This document shows positions 1,149 to 51,625 of a stretch of DNA of 64,000 bases, in pieces (position 1 is the stretch's first letter; each line of letters begins with the position of its first letter). The notes beneath the pieces were generated by a model that saw only the letters and a list, made by a program, of their open reading frames with translations, did no database searches and was not told the DNA's origin. The DNA lies in assembly GCA_016432425.1 (NCBI GenBank), contig CP066688.1, positions 514,619 through 578,618 on the forward strand, written 5' to 3'. The translations under genes were made by a program, and so were the position numbers. This DNA comes from Candidatus Daviesbacteria bacterium (lineage in GTDB: Bacteria; Patescibacteriota; Microgenomatia; Daviesbacterales; UBA10151).

Positions 1149-1730
1149 TCAACTATTTCTCGCTTTCAGACGTTTTTTAAAAAGATTTTCTGTAAAACCG
1201 CCTTCACTAATAAAAGCTTTTTCTAAAGCCTGGAGTTGGCGATCAAGTAAGTAGTTGGCCTGGTGAATTAAGGTGAGGAGTAAATTCCCAGCTTTCTCTG
1301 GGCGCGACAGATAGGTCTTATAAGTCTGATAGGTCGTATCTGTCCGATAGGACAGCGCCCGAAGTTCCTTTGCTTCAGGGCTATCTTTGTCCCAGATGGG
1401 TAAAGACCGTTGTCTTAAAAAATCCTCGTAGTCAATGAGCAGCTCTTCTAAAGAAGCCCTGGCCACTCCTACCAGTTTAATTTCTGTTTTTTTAGAAGTT
1501 GCAGAGGCTTGGGATCCTTCGGCAATGTTTTGTCTGCCGGACCTGGCCGCCTGCACCATTTGGTCAGTGGTTCTAGAACGGGGGTTAATATACAATCGGA
1601 CAAATTCGACAGTTAGGTCATATATGAGAGTGGTGGTTTGGTAAGAGTGGAGAGTCCGGTAACCACCATGCCCTTGTTTTTTATTAGTCGTATCGGTCTG
1701 ATATGTCATATTGGTCTTATTGGCTTTCAT
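1149..1730 (-). CDS. Four-helix-bundle protein (23S rRNA intervening-sequence protein family, TIGR02436-like) with a C-terminal extension.
   Basis: Family signature ...QNIAEGSQAS..SKK..I....ARASLEEL... Overlaps the giant gene's stop by 14 nt. The true start may be the internal Met (MTYQTDTT). Confidence 0.55.
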   Translation of the reverse strand: MKANKTNMTYQTDTTNKKQGHGGYRTLHSYQTTTLIYDLTVEFVRLYINPRSRTTDQMVQAARSGRQNIAEGSQASATSKKTEIKLVGVARASLEELLIDYEDFLRQRSLPIWDKDSPEAKELRALSYRTDTTYQTYKTYLSRPEKAGNLLLTLIHQANYLLDRQLQALEKAFISEGGFTENLFKKRLKARNS

Positions 1731-4700
1731 TTATTATAAACCAGTCAAAGTTAATGTCAGAAGCGGTAGTGAGGGGGACAGAGACAGTAAAACTCTGGTT
1801 TGCTGTCTTTGATAGGACTGATAATGACTGATCTGTCAGATTAGTTGCAGTTACCAACACCCTGGAGTTTAACTTGATTAGGGGAGTAGCAATATCTACA
1901 GATTTAGTTCCGGCCGGAATTTTACCTGTTCCCACAGAGGCTCCGGCTACTGCCTGGTATTCTTTAGCCGATACAGTTTGAGCTGTTAAAATACCTTCCT
2001 TATTTATAGTGACCTTACCATTAAAGATATCTACTAAACTGGCTAGTGGTGAATTTTGAATATACAAAATTCCATTTGTCAAATTAGTCAAATTGGTCTC
2101 ATCAGACCAATAAGAGTTAATGGAGTTTCCGGTAATGGCCAGTGTTCCATCCACTGTGAAATCACCGGCTACTAAGGTATTCCCTAAGGTAGTATGACCT
2201 AAAGATTTAAAGCTGTTTTGAATTTCTGCATCATAGGCAGTTAATTTACCGGAAAAAGTAGCCTCGGAAGTTACTTTAAGATTGGCCAAAGTGGCTGAAC
2301 CAGTGGCCAGCAAAGTATCCGGTGGAGTCAGGTCCAGGCATTCCACCCCCGAGGTGTAATCGCATTTTTTCACCTCGGGGGTGTTTTTAGCTAGCTGGGC
2401 TGAGAGGGAAGCTATTTGGTCGGCTAAGGATTTGGTAGTGGCAGATTGGGTGGCAATGGTAGTTTGCAGATCTGCCAGGGCTCCGGACTGGGTGGCCACC
2501 TTGGCTTCCAGGTTTTGCAGGGACCTGGCCACATCAATACCAAAGCTGATACCTCCATTGATAGAGGTGGCAGATTCATAGGCCAGAACAGAATCCTGAG
2601 CCGGAGGAGTGACATTAAAGTTATAATTTAGCACCAGTTTATCTGCTTTAACACTTGGCATAATTAAGTTGCCTTGATCATCTACAGATAAGGAAGAGAG
2701 GAAATCTCCGGGATCAGCCCAGGAAACATTAACAAAAGTCATAATCTTGCCCTGGCAATTCACCTCGGGGGAGTCAGAGCCCACCCCCGAGGTGTTACAA
2801 CTGAATGCTTCCAGTGCCTTCCCCACAGTTGGGCCGGGACGGGTGGCTTTCATAGCCACACCCGGAGTGGAGGAGGAAGTCAGATAATCTCCCACCTCAA
2901 TGGGGCCATTTTCTGAGGAAACCTTGGTAGGTACTCTTCCTGCCAAAGCTAACATGACAGGCTTGGCTGTTTTTCCTTGCAGGTCCGGGGCTTCCTCATC
3001 CCCTAAAACCAGCCCAGGCTTGGTAGTCATAATGCCCAAAACTTTACCATCATAAGCCTTATCAGATTTCTTAAAACCAATACCCGGTAAATCCGGATCA
3101 GCCACCACCACATCAGCTGCCTCCAGGCTCATATCCAAAGAATAATAAACCTCTGCCAAATCAGCCCCAGTTCCACCGGTCACTGTCCAAACTATCATTT
3201 CACCCCTACCCCCAGCCGCACCAGAACCACCCGTATTAGTGCCTCCACCTCCACCTCCACCTCCACCTCCAGGCACACCACTTGCACCTCCAGCCCCACC
3301 AGTACCGGAATCCTGTGCTCCACCCCCACCCCCACCACTTCCACCTCTGAGAGTACCAGCGCTGCCAGCACCTCCGGCACCGCCATTAGTAGTACCGGCA
3401 GTACCTCCTCCGCCAGACGAATAAGAGTTGCCGCTACCACCTGCTCCACCAGCAGTTTCGGTATTGGAGCTATTAAGTCCACCACCACCCCCACCACCTG
3501 CGCCTCCCCAGCGGGAGCTACCACCTGCAACACCATCACCTCCTGCTCCACCTCCACCTCCACCTCCTCCTCCTCCAAAGTCAGCGCTTCCACCTCCACC
3601 AGGACCACCACTCCCACCACTTGCTCCAGCACTGCCGGTGACACTTGCACCACTTGTTGCACCCCCATCATTAGTTCCACCTCCACCACCGCCTGGAGTA
3701 CCATTCCCTATACAACAGTCTCCACCTTGGGAACCACCAGTACCACCTTTACCACCTAAAGCAGTAAACCAACTACTGCCAAAGGTGGTATCCCCCCCAT
3801 TACCCCCAGTACCGCCATTACTGCTTGATCCAGCAGTCCCTGCAGTCCCAGCTGTTCCGATGCTTACTGTTTCGGTTGATCCGACAGATGCAGCGTTAAA
3901 TATTCCCCTCTCAAAGTGGCCACCTCCTCCACCCCCACCACCATTTCGTCTGGTTCCGGCAGCTGCTCCTGCTCCACCCCCCCCTCCACCACCTGCACCG
4001 ATAGCTTGCACAACTACTAATATTGCTCCACTTGGTTTGGTATAAGTACCATTAGCAGTGAAGGTTTGCACGCTGGCTCCGGCATCAGTGCCGCAGGCCA
4101 AGACTCCGGAGGAGTTAGTGTCAATAGTGTTGCAGGAAACCAGTCCGGAAAAAGTAATGGTGCCGGAGGAGGTAATACCGGTCAGGCCCGAGGCAACACC
4201 GGCCCCTGTGACATCCCAGGTATTGCTGTTGATGACGACGTTATCACCGTTGTCCCCTAAATTAACAACACCGTTAGCGGTCAAGGTGCCGTTGGCGGTA
4301 ATCGTACCGGAAGCAGTCAGGGCGGCTGCGGTGATTGTGCCGGTAAGTGTTGGTGATGCGCTCATAACCACGTTGCCTGTTCCGGTAATGGCATTGGAAA
4401 CTAAATTCTTGGATGCATCTGTAAAAACAGCCTGGGAAGCAGTCAGACCGGAGAAGTTAATAGTGCCGGAGGAGGTAATACCGGTGGCGCCGGTGATGGC
4501 TCCGGCCCCGCTAATATCAATGGAGCCGGAGTTTAGGATATTGCCCAAGGTGCCGGTAATTAAGATACCGTCTGTGATGGTGCCTGCGGTTTCTGCAATC
4601 TGTATGGCATTGGTGAGGGTGCCGGCCCCTGTTTGTTCTATCAGCAGCCCATTGGTAACTGTTTCATTAATATCCCGGTTATCTATATGCTGCATGGTTT

Positions 4701-7700
4701 CCAAGGTGCCTGTGGTTAACGAGTCATTTAAGTTGGCTATGACAAAAGCTCTTTGGGTGCTGGCATCTGTGGTGGCATCATTGGTGAAAGTGATAGTTAA
4801 ACCGTCAAAAGCAGCAGCAGTGGCTGCCGTATTCCAATCAAGAGTCTGGACTGTTTCTGCCATGGCTATTGCCCCATTGCCTGTTGGGTCGCCAATGGTG
4901 TTCCAGGTGGTTCCTCCTCCGCCAAAGCTGGCCCAGGTATTGGTATCAGTGCAGCCTTTGTAGGCATTGTCAAAATCATTAAAATAGATATCACCCACGC
5001 TGCAGCTGGCCGGGTCTCCGGTGTCTGTTTTGCCTGCTGAAACATTAACAAAAGAATAAGTTCCCTGGTCTTTTAAGGCCAGCATGGCATTGGTGCCGTC
5101 ATTAAAAGTCAAAGTCCCGGCATTGGCAAAAGAGAGAATAGGGGTGGAGTCGGCAAAGTTAATATCCGTGTCCCAGGTGGTGCCGATAGTTAAGGCAGTG
5201 TCAGTCCCATTGGAGGTGGTAATGTTGTCAATCTTAATGGCGTTGATAGTGCCGCCGGCAGTGGTGGTGGCGGGAGGGGTAATGAGCAGGCCGTTTAAAG
5301 TGCCGGCCCCTACTGCAGTCATGGAAGCAGAGAGCATATTTTCTGTGCCTCCGGTAGTGATGGTGCCGTTTGATACTAATACTCCTGAGGCAGTGATGGT
5401 GCCGCCAGCTGACTGGGTAATATTAGGCAGCTGGATATTGGCTCCTCTCCAGGCAAAAGAGCCGGCTGTAGCATTGGTAATGGCTCCGGTGGTACCTAAA
5501 TTAAAGCCGGTATAGACTGTATCATTGGAAGTAGTGGAGGCAACCGGCAACTGGAGATCGTATCCGGTGATATTTTGGCCGGCAGCCGGGGTAGTGAGGT
5601 TGGTATTGAGATTAAGAGACATGCCTGTAATGGTGGCTGCTCCCTGGGTGGTGGCTCCTCCAAAGTCGGCATTGACCAGGGTGCCCGAGGTCCAGGCGGT
5701 TTCTAAGGTAAAGTCCAAATATGTGCCGGTGGTTTGAGGGTCAATGGTGACGGCGCCGGTTGCTCCGGCCACATCAAAGTAGGTCAGATCAATGTTGGCG
5801 GTGGTACCGATAATATTGTTGTCGCCGATATTTAAGGAGTTGGTGTAGTCGGTGTCTGTTATGGTGATTGCGGTGGTTACTGCCGCGTCCGGGCTGAACG
5901 TCATGGCTCCGGTTGCGGTTAACTGCACATTCTGGGCGGTGATAATTAAATCTTCGCCTGCCGCGTCTCCGCCTGAAGCGTTAAGAGTAAGCGTTCCTGA
6001 CGTGGTGGTGGAAATGGAGAGGTCTCCAGATGTTGAGTTAATGCTCCTGGTCCCTGCCCCGGCAATTTCAATGGCATCCCCTGTGCCGGCATTCTCTACA
6101 TGAAGAACGTCTCCCGAGGAGGTTGAGTAGTTCTGGTCAACCACCAGGACATTACCGGTATGGGTTAGGGTTCCTGTAGTTTGTGTAGAAGTATCGGAAA
6201 TTGATACCAGTGCTCCTGAAACTGTTAAGGTAGAGGCAAAAAGGGAGTTGGTGGTGACTGACCTGCTTATATCTAATACTTGTCCCGAGATTGCGGGGGT
6301 AGTTACTGCTGTGGAGTAGGTAGGAGAGAAGGAGATGTTGGCAGTATCAGCAGATAAGGTGGTGTCGGTGGCAGCGGTTGCTGATTGGGCCACATTCAAA
6401 AGCACCCCCGAGTCAATGGCATTGCTAGTTGAGGTAATATCCAAACCCTTGCCGGTGGTTAAGGCGTCAACCGAGAGAGTCAGAGCCGTCCCGCTGGAGA
6501 TACTGTCTGTGGTTATATCAATGGCATTAACAGTGGCTGCTCCACTGTTTATATCAAAGGTGGTGGCTACCCCGGTATTACCCAGAGTAATGGCATCAGC
6601 ATTGGTGGCACCGGTGCCGATATTGATGGTATCGCCAGCAGTACCGGTGCCTAAATTAATAGTTTTGGTGGTATTGGCAGTAAACAGGTTGCCGGTGGTG
6701 GTCGAGGAACCGGCCACCGGTAGGTCTAAGGTTACAGAGGTGGTTGTATCAGATGTTGATATATTGAGATAGTTATCTGTGCCTTGCTGAATATCCAGAG
6801 CATCAGCTAAATTATCAGGAATATTGCCGGTGATGCCGGCATTAGAGGTGGCATTAATGGTGACTCCGTCATCACCTGTGATGGTTAACAGGCCATTTGA
6901 GGTAGACCAGGTGGAGGCATTGTTAGCAGTTAGGGTAAGAGCTTGGGCTGCTCCGGCAGCCACAGTTAAAGCCCCGCCGGCAGGACCGGTAATGGTGGCA
7001 GCCCCATCTGCATCCACAAAAGTAATATCTCCCACACTACTAAACTGGATGGAATCTGTACCGTTACCTATTTCTAAAGGTGCAGATGGGGTAGCGTCCC
7101 CAATGCCCACATTACCATTTTCCACAATCAGCCCATAATTGGCAGTAGTAGCCCCGGAAGCTGAAAAATATCCGGCTACATTGGTGCCTGATGTGGCATT
7201 GGTATTGGTAACTGCAGAATATATGCCATAAGCTGTATGGGCCAGTTGGGCATTGGCTCCGGATCGGGCCAGATTTAATAACTTTGATGTTCCTGATGCT
7301 CCTCCTGCAGTTGAGGTTGAAGAGACATCCACAGCAGTACCGGTTGAGAGGGCATCAGCGGAAATGATCAAAGCTGTACCTGTTGAGATTGAGTCAGCCA
7401 GATAGGACAAAGGATTGGTTGTTGTAGCTGTGGTGTTAATGGTAGTGGTCTCATCAATATCCAAAGTATTATCCAAATCATCAAAATCTATACAGTCAGT
7501 ACAGTTGAAGGCTGTCACATCAGTGGCTGTCAGGGTGGTAGCCCCGCCCAGAGTTAAGGTATCTGTGGAGTGAGTTAAAGTCACATCACCGTTGTTAAAA
7601 TTAATTACTCCACCACTGGCTAAAAACAGATCAGACCACATCAGGGCAGTAGTGCCTAAAGCATTACCATCAGAGGTGGAGGGGGAAAGGGAGGTGGCAT

Positions 7701-10700
7701 CAAGTGTTAGCTCATTAGTCCCCCCGATACCAATCTCTAAAGAGGTGGTGGCATTAATATCGCTGTCCCAGCCAGTTCCTATTGACAAAGCAGTGGTTGC
7801 TGAGTTGGTGGTAGTGGTGTTGCCAATGTTTACTGCAGTAAAAGTATCTGCATCAGTAGATTCTGTCCAGGTAATGTTTAACCCGGTATTTGCATCTGCC
7901 CCGGTATCTGCAGTTGAAGTTACTGCTATGGTCAATCCATTGATGGCATTTACTGATGTGCCTGCAATATTTGCCACATCTCCTGCATTAGCCCCAGTCT
8001 TGGATATATTGGCAGTGTCTCCGCCGTCCAAGGTGACATTAAAGTCTCCACCTGATAGATCTAAATCACCATCGTTAACTAAAATATCTCCAGCTGTAAT
8101 GTATAGGGCATCTGTTCCATCAGCAGAACCTGCTATAACCAGGTTTCCCTCTGTTGGGCTAGAGTCCCCAATGCCCACATTACCATTTAGGAAAGTGGCA
8201 GCATAAGTAGTATCAGAGGCATTGGCAGTGGATACATCAACATATAATCCATAAACAGTGTTGGCCAAGGATCCTGCATCTGTTAAACCAATATCAAAAA
8301 CCCTTAAGGTATTGGCATTGGTTGAGGGGGAGTTAGTGATGTTTATATCCATTGCAGACTGTGTCCCGCCGGCAGTTGGTGTATAAGTGGCTGTTAAATC
8401 AAAGATGTCCCCGGTGGTGTGGGCAGCAGAGGTTGCCAGTACCAAAAGCGGTTGGGTAGTTAAAGAGGTAGTGCCTGTTAAGTTAATTGAAGAGTTAAAA
8501 TCCAGCTCATCATTGGTGGAGTCCCATAAAATGACAGCATTGGGGGTGGTGTCGCCGCGCTCAAACGCCAGCGAAGCATCTTCGGTATCGAGGGTGTTGT
8601 TATCAGAGTTGATGGTCCAGGAGCTGGAGGTGGTGGAACCACCTGTCACTGTTCCTGCTAGATTGGTCGCATCAACTGTATCAAACCAACCGGTGGCAAA
8701 GCGGGTGCCGGAGGAGCCAACATCAGTCCCTGCGCCTTGCGCTAAGATATCAGAGCCTGTTGACATTTGGATGTTACCCCCAAATTGGGCAGCCCAGTTG
8801 GTGGTGGCACCTGAGGCTGTGAAATAGCCGCCGATATTGGTGCTGGTAGTGCCGGTATTGGTGACAGCAGAGTAGAGCCCATAAGCTGTGTGGGTGGCAT
8901 TGGCATTAGCACCGGAGCGGGCCAGATTAAGTAAAATTGAGGATGAAGAACCTGTCCCTGCGGTGGAGCTTGATGCCAGATTAACTAACCCGTTGGTGGT
9001 GCCATTGCCGGTCCAGGTATTGCCGGTGGTGGCAATATCCAAAAGCCTGCCTGTGGTGACAGCATCAGTGGTCAGATACAGACCGGTTCCTGAAGTGATG
9101 GCGGTGGCATCAAAGACAAAACCAGAGGTAGTGGTGGCACCTGTTGCCACATTGGAGGTAAAAGTTTGAGAGCCGGTGCCGGAGGTTAAAGCCAGGGAAC
9201 TGGTAGAGGCATTGTTGCCGATGGTGATAGTGTCTGCTCCTGTTCCACCAGTACCAATATTGATGGTATCTGCCCCTGTTGCACCGGTGCCGGCCATGTT
9301 GATGGTGTGAGTTCCGGAACCGGAACCTAGGTTGATGGCAGTGTAGTTGCCTGAACCATTACCCAGATCCAGCAGAGTGGTGGCAGCTCCACCCAAAGAG
9401 AGAGTGGTGGCTGTGGCGTTAAAGATGGTGGCAGTTGTTGTAGTTGTTGTTATATCAGCAGAAGTTGCGCCATTAACAGCCAGGTCTCCGGTGATGGTAG
9501 TATCAGCATCGAATGAATACCCGGAAGAGGCCCCGGCAAAAGCCAGGGTATCTGTGGAATGGGTTAAAGTTACATCCCCATTATTAAAGTTAACTACTCC
9601 ACCACTGGCTAAAAACAGATCAGACCACATCAGGGCAGTAGTGCCCAGGGCATTCCCGTCAGAGGTGGAGGGGGAAAGGGCAGTGGCAGTTAAGGTCAGT
9701 TCATTACTCCCCCCAATCCCCAGGTAAAGGGTGCCGGCGCTGTTTAGGGATAAATCACCTGAGGTGGCTGTGGAGATAGTTAAGTTCCCAGAGGTATTAG
9801 TCCAGGCAGAGGTGCCGCCGGAAGCCAAAGTTAGCGCTCCGGTGGAATTGCCCAGGGTGGTGGTGGAACCGGCTCCGGTAGAATAGGTATGAGCTCCTGA
9901 TGCTCCGGTGCCTAAGGTGGTATTACCGGAGGAGGTCAGGGTGGTGAAAGCCCCGGTCCCGGCAGTAGTGGCCCCAAGGGAAACAAAGTTGGCAGCCCCG
10001 GCCCCGGTAATATTCCAGTTGTCATCATTTAAAGCCAGGGAAGAGGAGGCAGTGGTGGTACCGATGGTAATGGAGTTGGCCACCGCTCCTGTGCCAATGG
10101 CGATAGTATCTGCTGTAGTTATTCCGGTGCCAATGTTAATGGTATCAGCAGCAGTACCGGTGCCTAAATTAATGGTCTTGGTGGTATTGGCAGTAAAAAG
10201 ATTACCGGTGGTGGTAGAGGAGCCGGCTACCGGTAAATCAATGGTTACAGAGGTAGTAGTATCAGAAGTAGATATATTGATATAGTTATCAGTGCCTTGC
10301 TGGATATCCAAGGCAGGAGAAGTGTTATCTGGAAGATTGATGGTGGTAGTACCACTGATGGTTAAGGTATCAGAGGTGGCATTGCCCAAGGTGGTGTTGC
10401 TGTCAACTGTTAAATTGCCGGTAGTGGACAGGTCTCCGCCGGTTGATAAAGTTGTACCTTGGACTGTTAAAGATTGGGCAATGGTGACTGAACCGGAAAA
10501 ATCCCCGTCTTTTCCCCACAGTTTATTCCAGCGGGTAGAAGATGAGCCCAGATTATAGAAACTGTCACTGAGCGGATTAAGGTTAGTCCCGACTGACCCG
10601 CTTAAATTAACAGTGCCGTTGAAAGTGGCTGCATCACTGATAGTCATCTTGCCGGCAAAATTGGCATTACCTTCTTTGTCAATGGAGGAGTTAGACAAAT

Positions 10701-12210
10701 AAAGGGATTGGAAGCGGCTCCCGGTGGTGCCAATGGAACCGGTTTTGGTTAAATAGGGGTAGATGTCACCGCCGGCTGTTACCCAAACAGAACCGTCACC
10801 GATGGCTGATGAGGCCCCGTAAGGCCTAACCTGGGCAAAACCGGAAGCCCCCACTTCTGTCACTGACACATCATCTAAATAAACTACTCCCGAAGATAAA
10901 TTCGGGAACTCTATAACCGGGAACCAGTTTTCCCCTTGGCCCGGGCCGGGGGAGTTCATATCAAACTCCAGGAGCTGCCAGCCATTTTGCAGGTTAGTCA
11001 AATCTGAGCTGGTTAACTGTTTAGTAGTAGTGCCGGTTCGTTGCTTAGACACCGGGTCCCAGAAGCTAATCTGGAGATCAAAGGCGCTACTTTGATATGC
11101 TTTGAGGTAGAAAGCTAGATGATATGGACGAGATTCCCCGGTGACAGTATCCGGGTTTAAGATGCCTAAGTTGGAGGTGCCTCCCACAAACTTTAAGCTG
11201 TTATAGCCGGAGCGGGCCAGTTCATTGGTCAGAAATGTATTGGCAGAGGTGGAATTTCCTAAATAAATCCAGCGGTTAGGCAGACCGTTGTTGTTAGCTT
11301 CAAAAGAAGAGTTGGGCAAGAGGTTGGGGGAGGAGGTATCCGAAAGATTTGAGCTTAGAGCTTGGAGGCTAACTTGAGCATTCTTTTTGTCATCCTGATC
11401 CGCCAGCTGGCGGAGAAGAATTTCTTCTTCAGCCTCAACTAATCTTCGGCTGATCTCATTGATCCTGTCAGTTTGCACATTAACTACCTGGGCTACATCC
11501 GGAAAGCCTAAATCTTGGGCAGTTTGGGGGGAAGTGACCTGGATAGCCTTTTGGGAAAGAAAATTAAAGGGAGAGAGAATTTTACTTCCCACAGCTTGTA
11601 ACAGACCCAGGGTATCACTGGCTGCTCCCAGCACTTCACCCTTTTGGGCAGTACTGGCAGAGGCTGCAGACGCCAGGGCAATCTTTTTAGTAGTTTCAGG
11701 AAACTTTAAATAACCAACAGTTAAAACGGCAGTCAGGATAAAAGTGATGGCCCCGGCAGTAAGGATTGATTTAGCGATCCAAGAGGGCACTGTTGCGGGA
11801 GTTTCAGGTTGGCTTAAATTTTGCGCCAGAGACTCCAGTAAAAGCTGGTTTTGTTGTTGGGGGTTAAATGAGAGAGGGGTTAATCGTTTGACATCTTTGA
11901 CACTGTAAGACCGCTCACCGGTAGAGGACCTTTGGGCAGGGAACTTACCTTCTTTATCCCAGCGCCTTAAGGTTTTAATGGACACCCCTAATTTATCAGC
12001 TGCTTGTGAAATAGGGATTTGAGTCCTGCCTTTGGCGGGATGCTTGTGAAATTTGAGGAGGTTTGGTAGGTAAAACAGCCTGGTCCCGCCCGGAGTTTTG
12101 ATGGAGGAAATCTTGCCGGCTTTTTCCCAGCGGCGGAGGGTGTCAATGGAGACTCCTAAAACCTTGGCAGCTTGACCAATTTTGATGTAGTTGTCAGACG
12201 GATTTTGCAT
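1717..12210 (-). CDS. Giant (3,497 aa) membrane-anchored surface protein. Two N-terminal excisionase/MerR-type HTH domains, one TM helix, a CBM4/9-like carbohydrate-binding module, a long Thr/Gly/Ser-rich beta-helix/tail-fiber-like repeat region, a poly-Gly tract, a coiled coil and C-terminal globular domains.
   Basis: Single uninterrupted ORF. HTH1 KIGQAAKVLGVSIDTLRRWEKAGKI and HTH2 ISQAADKLGVSIKTLRRWDKEGKF. TM WIAKSILTAGAITFILTAVLTVGYL. CBM-like NLLPNSSFEANNNGLPNRW...YLDDVSVTEV. Repeats of GTGxxADTINIGTG type. Internal duplication ALSPSTSDGNALGTTALMWSDLFLASGGVxNFNNGDVTLTHSTDTL. TFTANGTYTKPSGAILVVVQAIGAGGGGGGG glycine-rich motif. Confidence 0.8.
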   Translation of the reverse strand: MQNPSDNYIKIGQAAKVLGVSIDTLRRWEKAGKISSIKTPGGTRLFYLPNLLKFHKHPAKGRTQIPISQAADKLGVSIKTLRRWDKEGKFPAQRSSTGERSYSVKDVKRLTPLSFNPQQQNQLLLESLAQNLSQPETPATVPSWIAKSILTAGAITFILTAVLTVGYLKFPETTKKIALASAASASTAQKGEVLGAASDTLGLLQAVGSKILSPFNFLSQKAIQVTSPQTAQDLGFPDVAQVVNVQTDRINEISRRLVEAEEEILLRQLADQDDKKNAQVSLQALSSNLSDTSSPNLLPNSSFEANNNGLPNRWIYLGNSTSANTFLTNELARSGYNSLKFVGGTSNLGILNPDTVTGESRPYHLAFYLKAYQSSAFDLQISFWDPVSKQRTGTTTKQLTSSDLTNLQNGWQLLEFDMNSPGPGQGENWFPVIEFPNLSSGVVYLDDVSVTEVGASGFAQVRPYGASSAIGDGSVWVTAGGDIYPYLTKTGSIGTTGSRFQSLYLSNSSIDKEGNANFAGKMTISDAATFNGTVNLSGSVGTNLNPLSDSFYNLGSSSTRWNKLWGKDGDFSGSVTIAQSLTVQGTTLSTGGDLSTTGNLTVDSNTTLGNATSDTLTISGTTTINLPDNTSPALDIQQGTDNYINISTSDTTTSVTIDLPVAGSSTTTGNLFTANTTKTINLGTGTAADTINIGTGITTADTIAIGTGAVANSITIGTTTASSSLALNDDNWNITGAGAANFVSLGATTAGTGAFTTLTSSGNTTLGTGASGAHTYSTGAGSTTTLGNSTGALTLASGGTSAWTNTSGNLTISTATSGDLSLNSAGTLYLGIGGSNELTLTATALSPSTSDGNALGTTALMWSDLFLASGGVVNFNNGDVTLTHSTDTLAFAGASSGYSFDADTTITGDLAVNGATSADITTTTTTATIFNATATTLSLGGAATTLLDLGNGSGNYTAINLGSGSGTHTINMAGTGATGADTINIGTGGTGADTITIGNNASTSSLALTSGTGSQTFTSNVATGATTTSGFVFDATAITSGTGLYLTTDAVTTGRLLDIATTGNTWTGNGTTNGLVNLASSSTAGTGSSSSILLNLARSGANANATHTAYGLYSAVTNTGTTSTNIGGYFTASGATTNWAAQFGGNIQMSTGSDILAQGAGTDVGSSGTRFATGWFDTVDATNLAGTVTGGSTTSSSWTINSDNNTLDTEDASLAFERGDTTPNAVILWDSTNDELDFNSSINLTGTTSLTTQPLLVLATSAAHTTGDIFDLTATYTPTAGGTQSAMDINITNSPSTNANTLRVFDIGLTDAGSLANTVYGLYVDVSTANASDTTYAATFLNGNVGIGDSSPTEGNLVIAGSADGTDALYITAGDILVNDGDLDLSGGDFNVTLDGGDTANISKTGANAGDVANIAGTSVNAINGLTIAVTSTADTGADANTGLNITWTESTDADTFTAVNIGNTTTTNSATTALSIGTGWDSDINATTSLEIGIGGTNELTLDATSLSPSTSDGNALGTTALMWSDLFLASGGVINFNNGDVTLTHSTDTLTLGGATTLTATDVTAFNCTDCIDFDDLDNTLDIDETTTINTTATTTNPLSYLADSISTGTALIISADALSTGTAVDVSSTSTAGGASGTSKLLNLARSGANAQLAHTAYGIYSAVTNTNATSGTNVAGYFSASGATTANYGLIVENGNVGIGDATPSAPLEIGNGTDSIQFSSVGDITFVDADGAATITGPAGGALTVAAGAAQALTLTANNASTWSTSNGLLTITGDDGVTINATSNAGITGNIPDNLADALDIQQGTDNYLNISTSDTTTSVTLDLPVAGSSTTTGNLFTANTTKTINLGTGTAGDTINIGTGATNADAITLGNTGVATTFDINSGAATVNAIDITTDSISSGTALTLSVDALTTGKGLDITSTSNAIDSGVLLNVAQSATAATDTTLSADTANISFSPTYSTAVTTPAISGQVLDISRSVTTNSLFASTLTVSGALVSISDTSTQTTGTLTHTGNVLVVDQNYSTSSGDVLHVENAGTGDAIEIAGAGTRSINSTSGDLSISTTTSGTLTLNASGGDAAGEDLIITAQNVQLTATGAMTFSPDAAVTTAITITDTDYTNSLNIGDNNIIGTTANIDLTYFDVAGATGAVTIDPQTTGTYLDFTLETAWTSGTLVNADFGGATTQGAATITGMSLNLNTNLTTPAAGQNITGYDLQLPVASTTSNDTVYTGFNLGTTGAITNATAGSFAWRGANIQLPNITQSAGGTITASGVLVSNGTITTGGTENMLSASMTAVGAGTLNGLLITPPATTTAGGTINAIKIDNITTSNGTDTALTIGTTWDTDINFADSTPILSFANAGTLTFNDGTNAMLALKDQGTYSFVNVSAGKTDTGDPASCSVGDIYFNDFDNAYKGCTDTNTWASFGGGGTTWNTIGDPTGNGAIAMAETVQTLDWNTAATAAAFDGLTITFTNDATTDASTQRAFVIANLNDSLTTGTLETMQHIDNRDINETVTNGLLIEQTGAGTLTNAIQIAETAGTITDGILITGTLGNILNSGSIDISGAGAITGATGITSSGTINFSGLTASQAVFTDASKNLVSNAITGTGNVVMSASPTLTGTITAAALTASGTITANGTLTANGVVNLGDNGDNVVINSNTWDVTGAGVASGLTGITSSGTITFSGLVSCNTIDTNSSGVLACGTDAGASVQTFTANGTYTKPSGAILVVVQAIGAGGGGGGGAGAAAGTRRNGGGGGGGGHFERGIFNAASVGSTETVSIGTAGTAGTAGSSSNGGTGGNGGDTTFGSSWFTALGGKGGTGGSQGGDCCIGNGTPGGGGGGTNDGGATSGASVTGSAGASGGSGGPGGGGSADFGGGGGGGGGGAGGDGVAGGSSRWGGAGGGGGGGLNSSNTETAGGAGGSGNSYSSGGGGTAGTTNGGAGGAGSAGTLRGGSGGGGGGAQDSGTGGAGGASGVPGGGGGGGGGGTNTGGSGAAGGRGEMIVWTVTGGTGADLAEVYYSLDMSLEAADVVVADPDLPGIGFKKSDKAYDGKVLGIMTTKPGLVLGDEEAPDLQGKTAKPVMLALAGRVPTKVSSENGPIEVGDYLTSSSTPGVAMKATRPGPTVGKALEAFSCNTSGVGSDSPEVNCQGKIMTFVNVSWADPGDFLSSLSVDDQGNLIMPSVKADKLVLNYNFNVTPPAQDSVLAYESATSINGGISFGIDVARSLQNLEAKVATQSGALADLQTTIATQSATTKSLADQIASLSAQLAKNTPEVKKCDYTSGVECLDLTPPDTLLATGSATLANLKVTSEATFSGKLTAYDAEIQNSFKSLGHTTLGNTLVAGDFTVDGTLAITGNSINSYWSDETNLTNLTNGILYIQNSPLASLVDIFNGKVTINKEGILTAQTVSAKEYQAVAGASVGTGKIPAGTKSVDIATPLIKLNSRVLVTATNLTDQSLSVLSKTANQSFTVSVPLTTASDINFDWFIINESQ

Positions 12211-12650: not shown

Positions 12651-12738
12651 GTATGATCACATTGGCAGATTTGCAATTTGAGATCTCAGGTTTGAGATGT
12701 TACAATCAAGCTTATAAGGGGAACCCTCTAATTACATT

Positions 12739-12756
12739 ATGAAGGGGACCTTCTAA
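12739..12756 (+). promoter_or_regulatory. Leader mini-ORF ATG AAG GGG ACC TTC TAA (MKGTF*) with embedded hairpin GAAGG-gga-CCTTC, 7 nt upstream of the leuS ATG. Part of a 27-bp tandem duplication (ctctaattacattatgaaggggacct x2).
   Basis: Direct reading. The identical peptide/hairpin unit recurs at 51601 and 49315 (minus strand). Confidence 0.45.
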
Positions 12757-12763
12757 TTACATT

Positions 12764-15331
12764 ATGAAAAAATATATTCCCCATGACATTGAACCTAAAT
12801 GGCAGCAAAAGTGGCAGAAGGATGCTCTCTACAGCGTTGACTTGGATAAATCTAAAAACCCCTATTATTTGTTAGTGGAATTTACTTATCCTTCCGGGGA
12901 TTTGCATATTGGTCATTGGTTTGCCTTTGCTGTGCCTGATATTTTAGGCAGGATGAAGAGAATGCAGGGGTTTACAGTGTTTTACCCTAATGGCTTTGAT
13001 GCTTTTGGGTTGCCCGCAGAAAATGCTGCCATCCAACGGGGTATTCATCCCAGAGATTGGACTTTGTCAAATATAGAAAATATGAAAAAGCAATTTTCCT
13101 TAATGGGGACCATTCATGATTGGGGAAATAGCGTCATTACTTGTCTATCAAACTATTACAAATGGAATCAATGGATTTTCTTAAAGATGTTGGAGAAAGG
13201 TTTGGCTTACAAAGGTAAAACTTTATCTAACTGGTGCCAGCATTGTCAAACTGTTTTGGCCAATGAAAATGTAGAAGCTGGTAATTGTTGGAGATGTCAT
13301 AATCCGGTAGTGCAAAAAGAGGTAGAACAATGGTTTTTAAAGATTACAGATTATGTCCAGAGGCTCCTTTGGGGCGAAGGTGGTAATGGGGTAGATTGGC
13401 CAAAAGCTCTGATGGAGGGGCAGAATAATTGGATTGGCAAAAGTCAGGGACAAGTGATTAAATTTGATGGCATTGAAGTGTTTACGACCCGTCAGGACAC
13501 GATTTTTGGGGCTACCTTTATCGTTATCAGTCCAGAACATCCACTGCTAAGTAAATTTGTTACATTTGAAAATAAAGAAAATGTCCAAAAATATTTAAAA
13601 TCCGTCCAGAAAAAGTCGGAACTGGAAAGAAAAGAAGAAAAAGTCAAATCTGGCGTTTTTACAGGTTCATTTGTGAGTAATCCCTTGACTGGTGAGCAGA
13701 TTCCGATTTGGATTGCTGATTATGTTTTGATGGGATATGGAACAGGGGCAATAATGGGAGTACCGGCCCATGACGCGCGGGACTTTGAATTTGCCAAAAA
13801 GTACGATTTACCTATAAAAACTGTTATCCAACCAGCGGGTCATACCGACTCACCGTCACCCGCTAATCAGGTACCAGATCAAGCCTACGTTTTGACGAAG
13901 TCAAAAGGCAAGGTTCTGCCAAAGGCAGGTTCTTATGATTTGACGAAGTCAAAAGGCAAGGTTCTGCCAAAGGCAGGTTCTTATGAAGGGGAGGGAGTTA
14001 TGGTAAACAGTGGTGAATATGATGGTATGAGTAGTAATGAAGCTCGGGAAAAGATATCAAACTATCTTGAAGAACATCATTTAGGTCAGAGAAAAGTTAA
14101 TTACCACCTCCATGACTGGTCCATCTCCCGTCAAAGGTACTGGGGTACCCCCATCCCCATTATCTACTGTGAAAAATGCGGCAGCGTACCGGTACCGGAA
14201 AAAGATCTGCCGGTGGAACTACCTTACGAAGTAGATTATCATCCTACCGGTAAACCGCCTTTGGCCACTAATGAGGCTTGGCTTAATGTGAAATGCCCTC
14301 GCTGTCTTGGTTCAGCCAAGAGGGACACTGAAACCATGGATACTTTTGTAGATTCATCCTGGTATTTCTTGCGTTATTTAGATAATAAAAATGACCAGGA
14401 AATTGTTAGTTCAAAACGACTCCGAACTTGGATGCCGATAGACATATATTTTGGCGGGGCAGAGCACACGCTGGGGCATACCTTATATTCCCGGTTTTTT
14501 GTGAAATTCCTAAAAGACATTGGAGTAGTGGATTTTGAGGAATATGCCAAAAAGAGAGTTAACCATGGAGTGATTTTGGGCTCGGATGGCTCCCGGATGA
14601 GTAAATCCCGGGGTAATGTGGTTAACCCAGATGAGCAGGTTCGCCAGTTCGGAGCAGATGCAGTCAGGTTATATTTAGCTTTTATCGGTCCTTATGATAT
14701 CGTTTCTCCTTGGAATCCATCAGCTATTAATGGTGTTTACCATTTTTTGCAAAGAGTTTGGTCGCTTTACGACAAAATAGCCTCGATCGGCAACAAGTTG
14801 TCGTCAGAAGACTTACGAATAATGCACAAAACTATCAAAAAAGTGACAGAAGACCTGGAGGATATTAAGTTTAATACGGCTGTGGCAGTTTTGATGGAGT
14901 GGTTAAACTACTTAAGTCGTAAGGAAAACGTGACCAGGGAAGAGTATAAAACTTATCTACTGCTCTTGGCCCCCTTTGCCCCTCATATTACGGAAGAACT
15001 ATGGTCCTTCGACAAAGTTTACACTGAGCGAACCTGTGGTGAGTGTAGTCGAACCAGTCGAAGTGCTCAGGATCAACAAATCTGGTCTATCCATCAGCAG
15101 TCTTGGCCTATCTTTGATAAACAATATTTAGAGGAAGCAGAAGTGGCTGTGATTGTCCAGGTCAATGGGCGGCTGCGGGATATTTTGATGATACAAAAAG
15201 ATATATTAAATGATAAAGAAGCTGTAGAAAAATTAGCTCGGGCAAGCCAAAAGGTGGCTAAATACTTAGATGGGCAAACTGTTAAAAAGGTGATTCACGT
15301 CTCCGGGAAACTAATCAATTTTGTTGTTTAG
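12764..15331 (+). CDS. leuS: Leucyl-tRNA synthetase.
   Basis: 855 aa. Class I HIGH (HIGH-like HIGHWF) and KMSKS (RMSKSRGN) motifs and LeuRS-typical editing/anticodon-binding regions. Contains a 70-nt in-frame repeat insertion at 15006..15075. Confidence 0.95.
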   Translation: MKKYIPHDIEPKWQQKWQKDALYSVDLDKSKNPYYLLVEFTYPSGDLHIGHWFAFAVPDILGRMKRMQGFTVFYPNGFDAFGLPAENAAIQRGIHPRDWTLSNIENMKKQFSLMGTIHDWGNSVITCLSNYYKWNQWIFLKMLEKGLAYKGKTLSNWCQHCQTVLANENVEAGNCWRCHNPVVQKEVEQWFLKITDYVQRLLWGEGGNGVDWPKALMEGQNNWIGKSQGQVIKFDGIEVFTTRQDTIFGATFIVISPEHPLLSKFVTFENKENVQKYLKSVQKKSELERKEEKVKSGVFTGSFVSNPLTGEQIPIWIADYVLMGYGTGAIMGVPAHDARDFEFAKKYDLPIKTVIQPAGHTDSPSPANQVPDQAYVLTKSKGKVLPKAGSYDLTKSKGKVLPKAGSYEGEGVMVNSGEYDGMSSNEAREKISNYLEEHHLGQRKVNYHLHDWSISRQRYWGTPIPIIYCEKCGSVPVPEKDLPVELPYEVDYHPTGKPPLATNEAWLNVKCPRCLGSAKRDTETMDTFVDSSWYFLRYLDNKNDQEIVSSKRLRTWMPIDIYFGGAEHTLGHTLYSRFFVKFLKDIGVVDFEEYAKKRVNHGVILGSDGSRMSKSRGNVVNPDEQVRQFGADAVRLYLAFIGPYDIVSPWNPSAINGVYHFLQRVWSLYDKIASIGNKLSSEDLRIMHKTIKKVTEDLEDIKFNTAVAVLMEWLNYLSRKENVTREEYKTYLLLLAPFAPHITEELWSFDKVYTERTCGECSRTSRSAQDQQIWSIHQQSWPIFDKQYLEEAEVAVIVQVNGRLRDILMIQKDILNDKEAVEKLARASQKVAKYLDGQTVKKVIHVSGKLINFVV
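15006..15075 (+). mobile_element. 70-nt interspersed repeat copy A, inserted in-frame inside leuS. 100% identical to copy B at 26865..26934 (opposite orientation).
   Basis: ccttcgacaaagtttacactgagcgaacctgtggtgagtgtagtcgaaccagtcgaagtgctcaggatca. It encodes ~20 extra residues (FDKVYTERTCGECSRTSRSAQDQ) between the conserved EELW and SIHQQSWP LeuRS segments. The termini are inverted (cttcgac...gtcgaag). Confidence 0.7.
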
Positions 15332-20381: not shown

Positions 20382-20984
20382 ATGATACAGAGGACATTAA
20401 TTCTTATAAAACCTGATGCCATGGAGCGAGGGGTGGTGGGAGAGATTATCTCCCGTTTTGAAAGAGTAGGACTTAGGATTTTAGAAGGCAAAATGGTAAC
20501 GGTCACAGAAGATTTAGCCACGGAACATTATCCAGTGACTGACGAGTGGCTTAATAAAGTAGGCAATAATACTATTTCTGATTGTGAAAAGTATGGTTTG
20601 GATGTGAAAGTTACCATGGGTACTGATGACCCGATTGAGATTGGCAGATTAGTTCATTCCTGGAACAAAGATTGGTTAATGAGCATGCCTATTTTGGCCC
20701 TGGTTTTACAAGGTATTCATGCGGTGGAGGTAGTGCGCAAGCTGTGTGGCCCCACCTTGCCGCTTTTGGCCCCTCCGGGGACTATCAGAGGAGATTTTTC
20801 TTCTGCATCAGCTATTTCAGAAAATATTAATAAAAAACCGATCAGGAATTTGGTCCATGCTTCCGGGACTGTGGAAGAGGCTGATCGAGAAATTAATTTG
20901 TGGTTTCCAGAGCTTAAAAATAAAACAACTCATAAAAAGAGCGCGGTCGTGATGGATGATTCGCTGTTAAAAGCTAATCAGTAA
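20382..20984 (+). CDS. ndk: Nucleoside-diphosphate kinase, extended form.
   Basis: N-terminus RTLILIKPDAMERGVVGEIISRFERVGLRI matches the NDK consensus. ~200 aa with a C-terminal extension. Confidence 0.75.
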   Translation: MIQRTLILIKPDAMERGVVGEIISRFERVGLRILEGKMVTVTEDLATEHYPVTDEWLNKVGNNTISDCEKYGLDVKVTMGTDDPIEIGRLVHSWNKDWLMSMPILALVLQGIHAVEVVRKLCGPTLPLLAPPGTIRGDFSSASAISENINKKPIRNLVHASGTVEEADREINLWFPELKNKTTHKKSAVVMDDSLLKANQ

Positions 20985-21812: not shown

Positions 21813-22331
21813 ATGAGGGGTATTTACAAAAAAAGTTTAAGTGAGGCTATTCTATTAGCTTTGGAAAAAGCTGTAGATGGATATGTTAGGTATGACGATT
21901 TAATTCATCACCCATCTTCATATGCCTGGGGAAGTGGTTGGGATAAACAGTTAAAAAAGCCTACTCTTTCTCAAGCCTTAAAAAGGCTGAGAGAGCGTGG
22001 TTTAATACAGGAGGATAAAGTAGATACGAACAAAGTTATTTTTAAATTAACTGAAGCAGGGAAAGATGCCTTGGGAGTGGGATTTTTTGATGAAAAGAGT
22101 TGGGATGGAAAGTGGAGGATTGTAATATTTGATATTCCGGAACAGAAAAGGTTGGTTAGAGACCTTTTTAGGAGAAATCTTAAAAAATGGGGTTTTAAGC
22201 ATTTACAGAAAAGTGTTTTGGTTAGTAAGCAGGACATTTTTTCTAAACTAACTGCTTATGTTAAAGAATTGGGGATCGAGAGATGGGTGGTGGTAATAGA
22301 ATCAGATAGATTGAGCAATCACAATTCATAA
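21813..22331 (+). CDS. PaaX-like winged-helix transcriptional regulator, paralog 1 (172 aa).
   Basis: N-terminal wHTH (ILLALEKAVDGYVRYDDL). C-terminal PaaX_C-like motif WDGKWRIVIFDIPEQKR...LRR.L...GF..LQKSV. ~50% identical to the 52746..53264 paralog. Confidence 0.55.
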   Translation: MRGIYKKSLSEAILLALEKAVDGYVRYDDLIHHPSSYAWGSGWDKQLKKPTLSQALKRLRERGLIQEDKVDTNKVIFKLTEAGKDALGVGFFDEKSWDGKWRIVIFDIPEQKRLVRDLFRRNLKKWGFKHLQKSVLVSKQDIFSKLTAYVKELGIERWVVVIESDRLSNHNS

Positions 22332-25673: not shown

Positions 25674-26867
25674 ATGGTAGCGGGTTTTGATGGATCCCGG
25701 GCTTTTGTAAAAAATCGGACCGGGACAGAAAATTATTCTTATCAGTTATTAAAAAACTTGGCCAAAATTGATCAAAAAAATCAGTATGTGGTCTATTTAA
25801 GACCAGGGAACGAGGTTAAAGAAAAGTGGCCCAGTAATTTTGAATTTAAGGTTTTAAATTATCCTCGTTTATGGACTCAAATAGGTTTGGCCAAACAAAC
25901 TTTTCAAGATAAATTAGATGTATTGTTTGTGCCAGCTCATACCTTACCCATTGTGAGACGTCCAGGCTTAAAAACTGTCGTGACCGTGCATGATTTAGGC
26001 AGTGAATTCCTGCCTAAAACCCATCAAATTAAGCAGAGATTGTACTTATCATTTATGCAGCAAGTACAACTTAAGGGCGCGACTAAGCTTATTGCAGTTT
26101 CCAAAGCTACCAAAAATGATTTAGTTCAAAAAATTGGTCTAGATCCAAAGAAAATAGAGGTAGTTTATGAGGGATTTGATAAAAACCTATTTAAACCAGT
26201 CAAAAACTTGTCCCGAGCGACTTATCCTGAGTTATATCGAAGGAAGTCGAGGGATGATGCACTAGTTAATAGTTTGAAACAGTTTGGATTAAGACCCAAA
26301 GAATATTTTTTATTTGTTGGAACAATTCAACCCAGAAAAAATCTAGAAAGACTAATTAAAGCTTTTGGCTTAATCGCTCGAAGACCTGTCGCTACGCAGC
26401 CCCGCTCCGCGCCACCCCTCACTACACGATTAGTCTTAGTTGGAAGTAAAGGTTGGTTAAGTGAGGAAATTTATGAACTGCCCAGAAAATTAGGAATTGA
26501 AAAACAAGTTAAATTTTTAGGTAGAGTAGATGATGAAGATTTACCAGCTTTGTATTCCGGAGCTATAGCCTTAGTTTTCCCTTCCCTTTTTGAAGGCTTT
26601 GGTTTACCCATTTTAGAGGCCCAAGCTTGCCAGGTTCCAGTGATTACCTCTAATTTGTCTTCTATGCCGGAAGTAGCTGGTCCGCCAGCTAGCGGAGGAG
26701 CCATTTTAGTTGATCCATACAGTGAAAAAGAAATTGCAAATGCTATGATAAAGGTAATAAATCCAAAAGTAAGAGCGGATTTAATAAAAAAAGGATTACA
26801 AAACTTGAAGCGTTTTTCCTGGGAAAAATGCGCCAGGGAAACTTTAAAGGTGTTATTGTCATCCTGA
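25674..26867 (+). CDS. GT4-family glycosyltransferase (GT-B fold).
   Basis: EX7E-type motif region FPSLFEGFGLPILEAQACQVPVI. The stop codon TGA is provided by the first 3 nt of repeat copy B. Confidence 0.8.
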   Translation: MVAGFDGSRAFVKNRTGTENYSYQLLKNLAKIDQKNQYVVYLRPGNEVKEKWPSNFEFKVLNYPRLWTQIGLAKQTFQDKLDVLFVPAHTLPIVRRPGLKTVVTVHDLGSEFLPKTHQIKQRLYLSFMQQVQLKGATKLIAVSKATKNDLVQKIGLDPKKIEVVYEGFDKNLFKPVKNLSRATYPELYRRKSRDDALVNSLKQFGLRPKEYFLFVGTIQPRKNLERLIKAFGLIARRPVATQPRSAPPLTTRLVLVGSKGWLSEEIYELPRKLGIEKQVKFLGRVDDEDLPALYSGAIALVFPSLFEGFGLPILEAQACQVPVITSNLSSMPEVAGPPASGGAILVDPYSEKEIANAMIKVINPKVRADLIKKGLQNLKRFSWEKCARETLKVLLSS

Positions 26868-26934
26868 TCCTGAGCACTTCGACTGGTTCGACTACACTCA
26901 CCACAGGTTCGCTCAGTGTAAACTTTGTCGAAGG
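26865..26934 (-). mobile_element. 70-nt interspersed repeat copy B, 100% identical to copy A in leuS, in reverse orientation. It forms the 3' end and stop codon of the GT4 gene and the intergenic spacer before the tagA-like gene.
   Basis: Reverse complement of 26865..26934 equals 15006..15075 at 70/70. Confidence 0.7.
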
Positions 26935-26956
26935 GGAAGGATCTCTAGGATTATTT

Positions 26957-32277: not shown

Positions 32278-32507
32278 CCTTCGACTCGCTTCGCTCGCTC
32301 AGGACTATAGTACTAAAAAAGCGCCTTTCTGAGGCGCATGTAATAGAATAATGAATTATGAATTATTCATCATTCATATTGCTTTATTCTAATTTAAACG
32401 CCTCGGTGAGACTTATGCTTCGACTACGCCAAGTCTGACTTGGCTACGCTCAGCACTCACTGTCTTAAGCTAAAACATTGTAGCTTAAAGTTCTATATTT
32501 TGTCAAC
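32278..32507 (-). promoter_or_regulatory. rplJ 5' leader region (candidate L10-leader autoregulatory structure). Contains repeat-family fragments (ccttcgactcgcttcgctcgctcagg abutting the ATG, and cttcgactacgc...gctcagcactcactg) and an 8-bp hairpin gccaagtc-t-gacttggc.
   Basis: 230-nt untranslated region upstream of rplJ on the minus strand. The structure call is inferred. Confidence 0.35.
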
Positions 32508-39061: not shown

Positions 39062-39106
39062 CATTGACAGGATTGTATGGCACTTTGAACTGATAGTCAA
39101 TATAGA

Positions 39107-49307: not shown

Positions 49308-49314
49308 AACGTAG

Positions 49315-51618: not shown

Positions 51619-51625
51619 TTTCATT

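Follow-up and report, generated by a model that had tools for sequence, protein, structure and literature searches.

How does the same stretch of 70 nucleotides (nt) come to stand, without a single mismatch, both inside the gene of an essential aminoacyl-tRNA synthetase and between two cell-wall genes, both for glycosyltransferases, of a small bacterial genome? The question is raised by a 64-kb stretch of DNA (positions 514,619 to 578,618 of contig CP066688.1; hereafter, the window) from a Candidatus Daviesbacteria bacterium, a member of the Microgenomates within the Patescibacteria or candidate phyla radiation (CPR), whose genome is a single contig of 820,589 bp. One copy (copy A) is found within leuS, encoding leucyl-tRNA synthetase (LeuRS), and the other (copy B) in the spacer between a GT4 glycosyltransferase gene and a tagA-like gene. 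Mobile DNA is generally held to be all but absent from minimal CPR genomes. The reading favoured here, to which a probability of roughly 0.68 is assigned, is that the 70-mer is a compound member of a non-autonomous family of mosaic palindromic repeats, resembling the repetitive extragenic palindromic sequences (REP), the bacterial interspersed mosaic elements (BIME) and the miniature inverted-repeat transposable elements (MITE), and behaving like the Rickettsia palindromic elements (RPE). It is favoured because the copies are dispersed and graded, a filled and an unfilled site can be compared, copies are nested in older ones, and those in genes survive only in frame. If so, selfish repeats of a type familiar for many years in Rickettsia and other bacteria have a new example in a CPR bacterium with a tiny genome, and even 820 kb of CPR DNA is not free of proliferating selfish sequences.

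Identity of the two copies

Copy A, CCTTCGACAAAGTTTACACTGAGCGAACCTGTGGTGAGTGTAGTCGAACCAGTCGAAGTGCTCAGGATCA, occupies positions 15006-15075 of the forward strand, and positions 26865-26934, 11.8 kb away, are its exact reverse complement (70 of 70 nt, 0 mismatches); repeat copies were counted within the window, where the 70-mer occurs only these two times. The identity, which a first-pass annotation made from the sequence alone had pointed out, holds in full and is not expected by chance, being matched by none of 100 dinucleotide-preserving shuffles. The GC content of the 70-mer is 0.50, as against 0.43 for the window, and four of the six frames of the block are open, a number reached or exceeded in 6.6% of shuffles. 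The proteins at the two loci are 100% identical to NCBI entries QQG43091.1 (LeuRS) and QQG43103.1 (GT4) from the same 820,589-bp contig. Two independent Logan assemblies (SRR12113422 and SRR12113430) reproduce the window from position 25050/25060 to 26894 with 0 mismatches, including the junction between the GT4 gene and the repeat, and both end exactly 30 nt inside it, as is expected of a k-mer graph that branches at a true repeat. The assembly artefact that the annotation had named as a possible undoing of its claim is thus ruled out, and the 70-mer is a real dispersed repeat.

Anatomy of the 70-nt block

The block is made up of a few complementary words of 7-8 nt, namely b (CCTTCGAC) and b′ (GTCGAAGG), c (CCTGAGC(G)) and c′ (GCTCAGG), a (GTTTAYCC or TGTCATCC) and a′ (GGRTAAAC or GGATGACA). 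The minimal unit, of 19-26 nt, consists of b followed, after 3-11 nt, by c′a′. In the 70-mer, b is followed by an inverted second unit (a c ... b′) and then by c′a′, with a short cassette in the middle; that is, units in alternating orientation are nested like Russian dolls, as in BIME/REPIN mosaics. Of the terminal inverted repeats of 7-8 bp described initially, the arms do exist (7 bp; CTTCGAC at 15007-15013 and GTCGAAG at 15056-15062), but the second one is sub-terminal, lying 13 nt from the 3′ end.

Other structural descriptions were tried and abandoned. A stable hairpin as the defining property of the 70-mer copy was dropped after comparison with shuffled sequences; an H-type pseudoknot (b pairing with b′ and c with c′) was rejected on steric grounds, by inference and not by computation, b′ and c′ being adjacent (a loop of 0 nt); and an intein or intron was rejected in view of the size (20 amino acids (aa), or 60-70 nt), the absence of such motifs and the lack of an Rfam intron match. 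At the gathering score, Rfam recognized only tRNAs in the window and 14 further loci; it gave no match with E ≤ 10 at 14900-15200, and only sub-threshold matches to generic hairpin families in the canonical metagenome copies of the family described below.

The insertion in leucyl-tRNA synthetase

The leuS gene (12764-15331, forward strand) encodes an LeuRS of 855 aa with the Pfam domains tRNA-synt_1, the editing domain and Anticodon_1, and is complete, with its reading frame unbroken across copy A, which encodes (S)FDKVYTERTCGECSRTSRSAQD. Between the conserved EELW and SIHQQSWP segments the protein has 27 aa (SFDKVYTERTCGECSRTSRSAQDQQIW; residues 748-774, nt 15005-15085), whereas the insert-free sequences in an alignment of 120 orthologs have 7 (xxLGEKY). 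The net gain of 20 aa agrees with the in-frame insertion of ~20 residues first proposed, and E. coli LeuRS (sequence of PDB 3zgz/4aq7) is also without ~20 residues at this point. The peptide stretches read across the insert include VYTER, TCGECSR and SAQDQQIWSIHQQSWPIFDK. The insert is found after the last helix of the anticodon-binding domain and before the C-terminal domain. In an AlphaFold2 model with a mean predicted local distance difference test score (pLDDT) of 83.5, only two segments fall below 50, one of them being residues 760-771 within the insert, which is in frame, free of stop codons and placed in a loop predicted to be disordered.

In the leuS genes of other Daviesbacteria the outer words recur, codon for codon, at the same place, and what they enclose differs or is missing. 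As an example, the minimal form in L131 reads TCC TTC GAC TTC GCT CAG GAT AAA CAG AAC TGG (SFDFAQDKQNW) and that in L132 is similar, while L005 has a longer form with a different inner hairpin and L006 a decayed one. The closest ortholog (L130, 68% identity) is insert-free, with AILGHKY. The alleles that are filled, empty or filled with something else do not form separate groups on a rough neighbour-joining tree but are intermixed, and even very close sisters are in some cases unlike; the other fillings are unrelated repeat families (e.g. ...SSQLTV...LITDNW or SHFA...SRDxxW). The loop is thus an old hot spot, and the intermixing and the differences between close sisters indicate either turnover or repeated occupation. 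Since orthologs hold the same outer words at the same codons, copy A did not simply land, in recent times, in sequence free of the element; rather, the identity with copy B shows a recent renewal, either of the inner part alone or of the block as a whole. The C in GGATCAAC is common to copies A and B, where orthologs have GGATAAAC, which would fit an origin of copy B from the copy in leuS or from another copy, a third one, with the identical sequence.

Other repeat-derived peptides are found in the same EELW-SIHQQ loop of orthologs P0004-P0118 (QLVHSSQLTV...LITDNW, SHFAPEGASRDGNW and VILRSASDEGS...AQNDE); W is the last residue of almost every filled allele, where the empty ones have Y or F. 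LeuRS also has a second hypervariable loop, after the editing domain (residues ~361-403; 13890-13985), which is the other segment with pLDDT below 50. It contains a perfect-looking 48-nt tandem duplication (LTKSKGKVLPKAGSY twice), itself composed of small palindromes (TTGACGAAGTCAA and GGCAAGGTTCTGCC), and orthologs have from 0 to ~140 extra residues there.

The spacer between the GT4 and tagA genes

Copy B (26865-26934, minus strand, by reverse-complement identity) fills most of the 89 nt between the GT4 gene (25674-26867, forward strand), the C-terminus of which agrees with that of its orthologs, and a gene of the WecG/TagA family (26957-27682, forward strand), and was thus rightly described as the spacer before the tagA-like gene. 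The real start of the latter is the ATG at 26957 (MKVNILGV); a longer open reading frame (ORF) from 26828 reads through the repeat and its 5′ end is spurious. The gene order GT4, tagA, GPI is conserved among relatives. In L129 there is no GT4-tagA spacer and the two genes overlap as ATGA. With slashes separating flanks and centre, the spacer is TTGTCATCCTGA/ACATAGT/GAAGGATCTCT in L127, the closest relative (70% aa identity), and TTGTCATCCTGA/GGCGACTAGCC/GAAGGATCTCT in L128, the block being absent from both, and TTGTCATCCTGA/TCCTGAGCAC...GTCGAAGGG/GAAGGATCTCT in the window, where the same flanks as in L127 surround a block of ~67 nt. The left flank (26856-26867, forward strand), common to L127 and L128, contains the last GT4 codons (L S S) and the stop and is the putative left arm of an older minimal element, the right arm of which, GGAAGGATCTCT (26935-26946, forward strand), is conserved in the same two relatives.

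The TGA at 26865-26867, inside the identical stretch, is indeed the GT4 stop codon, as had been stated, but the new block is not its donor: L127 and L128 have the same stop without the 70-mer, so that its inclusion in the 70/70 identity is an overlap with the older arm. Nor does the description of the repeat as fused onto the end of the GT4 gene hold, since LLSS and the stop are present in relatives that lack it; the C-terminus, ...LKVLLSS*, is that of several orthologs, and the protein is neither extended nor truncated. The LSS* codons were probably given by an older, degenerate minimal element (ATCCTTC...TCAGGATGACA on the other strand) or by the native gene end, and the ~67-nt block would have been added at the centre of this older element after the split from the L127 lineage. 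At the junctions of copy B the outer words are duplicated (TCCTGA/TCCTGAGC and GAAGGG/GAAGGA); because the block's own outer words adjoin the old ones, it seems to have arrived as a whole unit rather than by homologous replacement.

The spacer of L128 (8336-8466) has gained a different repeat (…CACTACGTTCAGAATGACAGG) beside the old minimal element, as at a recurrent landing site, and the sequence TTGTCATCCTGATCC, identical to the junction between the GT4 end and the repeat (26856-26870), is also found at 11387-11401 of the window, within the gene of a giant protein.

Further members of the family in the window

A third, diverged copy (copy C; 49004-49069, minus strand), of 66 nt and with the outer words CCTTCGAC...GCTCAGG, lies in frame in the ORF 48243-49307, which encodes a conserved, hydrolase-like protein of 354 aa (920 homologs) without Pfam domains. 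Its inner cassette of ~45 nt is inverted inside the same frame and ~83% identical. The encoded peptide, FDSSSTTSVTLSTGSLTAGA (~nt 49008-49067), is a clean 20-aa insertion, absent from 49 of the 49 best homologs.

Shorter members are found next to ribosomal protein genes. Relative D, in the rplK-rplA spacer (41870-41935, minus strand), consists of the minimal unit CCTTCGACTATCGCTCAGG and a hairpin, GGTTCGAC...GTCGAACC, and adjoins the probable rplA start codon (41869-41867; GTCGAACC/ATG). The minimal unit E, CCTTCGACTCGCTTCGCTCGCTCAGG (32278-32303, forward strand), directly adjoins the start codon of rplJ (32275-32277, minus strand; GTCGAAGG/ATG). The autoregulatory leaders of L1 and L10 normally sit directly before rplA and rplJ; Rfam recognizes no L1 or L10 leader at 41870-41935 or 32278-32303.

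A 19-nt sequence resembling the minimal unit, CCTTCGACTTACGCTCAGG, is present in frame in a GH1 gene (51381-51399, minus strand; PFDLRSG), and its status is doubtful. It is non-random as DNA, and it shares with the leuS insert and copy C the same element orientation and frame (xCC TTC GAC ... GCT CAG G); as a candidate third in-frame insertion it was downgraded, because solved GH1 enzymes have native residues opposite it in the alignment and no net length is gained. Altogether, six CCTTCGAC...GCTCAGG units are found in the 64 kb of the window, against 0 expected, and none outside leuS in ~72 kb of four related Daviesbacteria, so that the family looks expanded in this genome.

The word set beyond the window

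The outer words recur in metagenomes as CCTTCGAC ... GTCGAAGG-GCTCAGGAT. A termini pattern (CCTTCGAC-N25-55-GTCGAAGNGCTCAGGAT) was found at at least 120 metagenome loci, on contigs with GC contents from 0.35 to 0.73, and gave 0 matches in viral contigs. The canonical form is b, a variable hairpin, (a)c, a short variable part and b′c′a′, and canonical relatives end in TGTCATCC...GGATGACA. Among 40 distinct copies of the variable hairpin, with at least 17 stem variants, 196 pairs are Watson-Crick, 16 G-T, 5 A-C and 13 of other kinds, a distribution that shows a hairpin apparently keeping its pairing via compensatory changes; the 70-mer itself is without it. Mosaic arrangements of the type b-a-c / c′-a′-b′ are seen in L113 and L037. 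Among the matches listed, most metagenome copies are outside long ORFs or at ORF ends. Pfam-verified in-frame copies are nonetheless found elsewhere, in a GT4 glycosyltransferase, an RlmL-like methyltransferase, UvrA and another LeuRS, there at a different site (contigs L111, of high GC, L029, L071 and L120, with copies in LeuRS, UvrA, GT4 and the methyltransferase). A canonical copy is intergenic on plasmids of Sphingomonas parapaucimobilis. In contigs of GTDB-representative genomes, a set in which the source genome is absent, the core pattern TGAGCGAACCTGTNNTGAGTGTA, which is too strict, gave 4 matches, including an intergenic one in Microgenomates (L004). A concatenated four-frame peptide query for proteins with an in-frame element returned no match.

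A bolder idea, offered tentatively since we consider it rather unlikely, is that the 70-mer could represent, in a local and AT-shifted version, an undescribed cross-phylum superfamily of ultra-small mosaic elements, defined by the conserved words CCTTCGAC / CCTGAGCG / GTCGAAGG-GCTCAGGAT plus variable, compensating hairpins and served by one hairpin-recognising machinery. If this were true, hairpins of the superfamily would themselves be targets of insertion, and essential proteins such as LeuRS and UvrA would have their surface loops remodelled over and over, in minimal CPR genomes too. If the words shared across phyla reflect a common mobilising enzyme, they would point to miniature mobile DNA of a class that is very widespread and as yet undescribed; this conservation and the hot-spot loop of LeuRS are the parts most worth pursuing.

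Origin and maintenance of the repeat

According to the favoured reading, that of a mobile, non-autonomous repeat family, a block of ~66-70 nt would be copied as a unit into or beside hairpin-forming sites, the preferred target being older family members, at their centre. Machinery acting in trans would be responsible; the likeliest candidates are a transposase specific for single strands or hairpins (HUH/RAYT-like) and template switching at hairpins. Within genes, only those insertions would persist that keep the frame, bring no stop codon and fall in surface loops able to tolerate them, and such tolerance would allow the survival of the copies in the linker loop of LeuRS and in a loop of the 354-aa hydrolase-like protein. 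The encoded ~20 aa would be passengers that serve no function, although translated, and they are probably disordered. The identity, the set of copies, the insertions in frame, their absence from orthologs, the nested anatomy and the wide distribution of the words are established; that the block moves, in which direction and by which enzyme, and that the insert is translated and neutral, is what we infer. The initial reading can therefore be maintained in part: RPE-like behaviour is made more credible by the lack of the block at the GT4-tagA site of L127 and by the third copy in frame, copy C, while the recent spread of a selfish element, as proposed from the perfect identity, is putative, and the leuS site is old.

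Several results weigh against the favoured reading. The 70-mer folds no better than shuffled sequences (z = -0.7 as RNA and -1.3 as DNA), so that the folding check recommended in the first-pass annotation does not reveal a hairpin of unusual stability. No Y1_Tnp or other transposase/RAYT domain was recognized by Pfam in the 30 ORFs of the window, and a phmmer search with E. coli RayT, of low sensitivity, gave no match among ~5,400 ORFs in ~700 kb of loci. The flanks of copies A, B and C have no direct repeat in common, TGGTC being present on both sides in leuS alleles only; furthermore, copy number and the spectrum of identities are based on 64 kb of an 820-kb genome. Finally, distant orthologs hold the same words at the same codons of leuS, and the 100% identity could reflect conversion and not a new insertion in this gene.

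This last point is the core of the main alternative, namely that the copies are ancient residents made identical by recent gene conversion or recombination, in a family that may no longer be mobile. It is a possible, though not a likely, explanation. Besides the age of the leuS site and the failure to find a transposase in the searches just described, it would fit the degenerate minimal element already present at the 3′ end of GT4 in L127 and L128, and the short homologies ATCCTGA and GAAGGA at both borders could have served it. However, the TCCTGA and GAAGG of the incoming block are duplicated at the GT4-tagA site, where simple conversion would have replaced them, and the site of copy C is element-free in 49/49 homologs, so that de novo insertion does occur in the family. 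The duplicated words and copy C thus argue against conversion as the sole process.

That the repeat is retained as an RNA or DNA signal (terminator, mRNA stabiliser, leader/operator or protein-binding hairpin), or as a useful peptide module of LeuRS, is improbable. The conserved words and the compensatory, G-T-biased hairpins of the superfamily would suit such a role, as would the location of most copies between genes or at gene ends and that of two short ones at the start codons of rplA and rplJ, the usual place of autoregulatory leaders; REPs, too, have been reported to act post-transcriptionally (PMC3733652). On the other hand, the 70-mer lacks the variable hairpin and is of ordinary stability, no Rfam family matches, the LeuRS loop of close relatives is empty or filled with unrelated repeat families, and the inserted peptide is predicted to be disordered. 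For the intergenic copies a regulatory function is conceivable, though the data can be explained without it. A collapsed or chimeric repeat produced by assembly or binning, conceivable in a metagenome-assembled genome such as this one, repeats being typical places for mis-joins, is effectively refuted by the exact GT4-repeat junction in two independent assemblies, the collinearity of the flanks of each copy with orthologous genes and synteny, the intact frame of leuS and the single 820,589-bp record.

Relation to known repeat families

In-frame repeats in genes were described in Rickettsia as RPEs (Ogata et al. 2000, 2002; summarised in PMC10969869 and PMC3184786), with a length of ~105-150 bp (~105-146 bp in PMC3184786) and a CGTC tag at one end (PMC3733652). 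Like these, the 70-nt block is a small, palindromic, dispersed repeat of a reduced genome, found in frame in unrelated genes, including essential ones, and also between genes; it adds a short peptide at positions compatible with the fold, as seen in LeuRS and in the 354-aa ORF (+20 aa each). Unlike RPEs, it measures 66-70 nt, contains neither CGTC nor its complement GACG, and is a mosaic of short words common to many phyla; RPE-1 to RPE-10 are confined to Rickettsia, the distinction from them being drawn by length and host. The likeness to RPEs drawn at first sight is therefore apt for a dispersed, partly palindromic repeat in frame in an essential aminoacyl-tRNA synthetase, but does not extend to size or to the CGTC tag.

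With REP/BIME/REPIN sequences (PMC3733652, PMC3116915) the family shares short imperfect palindromes, alternating mosaics and G-T pairs in the stems. As for REPs, the location is mostly extragenic, downstream of genes, and sometimes intragenic, notably in UvrA, with termini that can overlap or supply stop codons; units paired in inverted orientation are seen in metagenome copies such as L113 and L037. Intragenic REPs, notably in UvrABCD, REP termini supplying stop codons and MITE-ORF fusions are all documented (PMC10969869, PMC3184786, PMC3733652), and the copy of the word set in UvrA echoes the reported bias of intragenic REPs to repair genes (PMC3733652). In contrast with REPs, there is no terminal GTAG/CGTC; GTAG is internal and present in some copies only (GAGTGTAGTCGAAC), canonical relatives having GAAGTCG, GCAGTCG or GTAGTCG interchangeably at that point. 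No flanking RAYT/TIRYT gene was found (30 window ORFs, and the low-sensitivity RayT search of ~5,400 ORFs). Furthermore, a REP family is as a rule restricted to one species or genus; the present words, by contrast, show conservation across GC contents of 0.35-0.73.

Bacterial MITEs (Correia, ERIC, BOX, Nezha and those of Anabaena; PMC10969869, PMC3184786) are likewise non-autonomous, with inverted-repeat ends and foldable cores, form in-frame fusions with ORFs and leave filled and empty sites between relatives, as seen here at the GT4-tagA spacer (versus L127) and in the 354-aa ORF. They differ in having clear terminal inverted repeats, target-site duplications and a parent insertion sequence: here the arms are sub-terminal, there is no consistent duplication, the element is as small as the smallest MITEs or smaller, and a parent insertion sequence is not known. 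Thus, the element acts like an RPE, REP or MITE yet belongs to none of these families, as it has no CGTC/GTAG terminus, a different size, no RAYT found and no duplications of the MITE type. The small dispersed repeats (SDR) of cyanobacteria, which Elhai et al. are said to have described in Genome Research in 2008 (18:1484), are reportedly ~20-30 nt long, mobile, nesting and occasionally present in coding DNA; they would be alike in small size, nesting and occasional coding location, and different in sequence and host phylum.

A search of the literature found no description of these words, or of such repeats in CPR/Patescibacteria. The view that nothing equivalent had been described is therefore correct for CPR/Patescibacteria and too broad otherwise, as in-frame REPs and MITEs and stop-supplying termini are documented in many bacteria; novelty for this kind of genome is also qualified by the sharing of the word set far outside the CPR. 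As in Rickettsia, such repeats would be a source of length variation in essential proteins. They break short-read assemblies, mark the protein loops that tolerate insertion and account for many odd low-complexity insertions and spurious ORFs in annotations of CPR and soil metagenomes, such as the false 5′ extension of tagA.

Other features of the window

A conserved motif of ~30 nt, ATGAAGGGrACCTTCTAnyTnCrTTATGA, with the palindrome GAAGG-N-CCTTC, is found at 12706-12766, 51593-51628 and 49304-49332 (minus strand), where it ends in the start codons of leuS (being tandemly duplicated there), of the ORF 51626-52327 and of the 354-aa ORF, respectively; the three genes may thus have a leader, operator or promoter element in common. 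Two paralogous proteins of 172 aa with a PaaX_M / Cas2-like domain are encoded at 21813-22331 and 52746-53264, each beside tRNA genes, and share a stretch of 159 nt with 71% identity (repeat D6). A giant protein of 3,497 aa (1717-12210, minus strand) has two MerR/helix-turn-helix-like N-terminal motifs, long internal repeats (D2, D3 and D9) and a Gly-rich tract. The nucleoside diphosphate kinase encoded at 20382-20984 has 200 aa and matches its Pfam model in separate parts, perhaps owing to an internal insertion, and L7/L12 (31136-31747; 203 aa) has an extension of ~75 aa before its dimerisation domain; the counterpart noted for this pair in relatives is a 200-aa protein in L129 and one of 137 aa in L128. 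Finally, an inverted pair of 36-nt repeats, 86% complementary (GAGACAAACATTACACGGCCGTGATACTTTTGTCTA) and unrelated to the 70-mer family, is found at 39105-39140 and 53262-53297, its arms being 14 kb apart.

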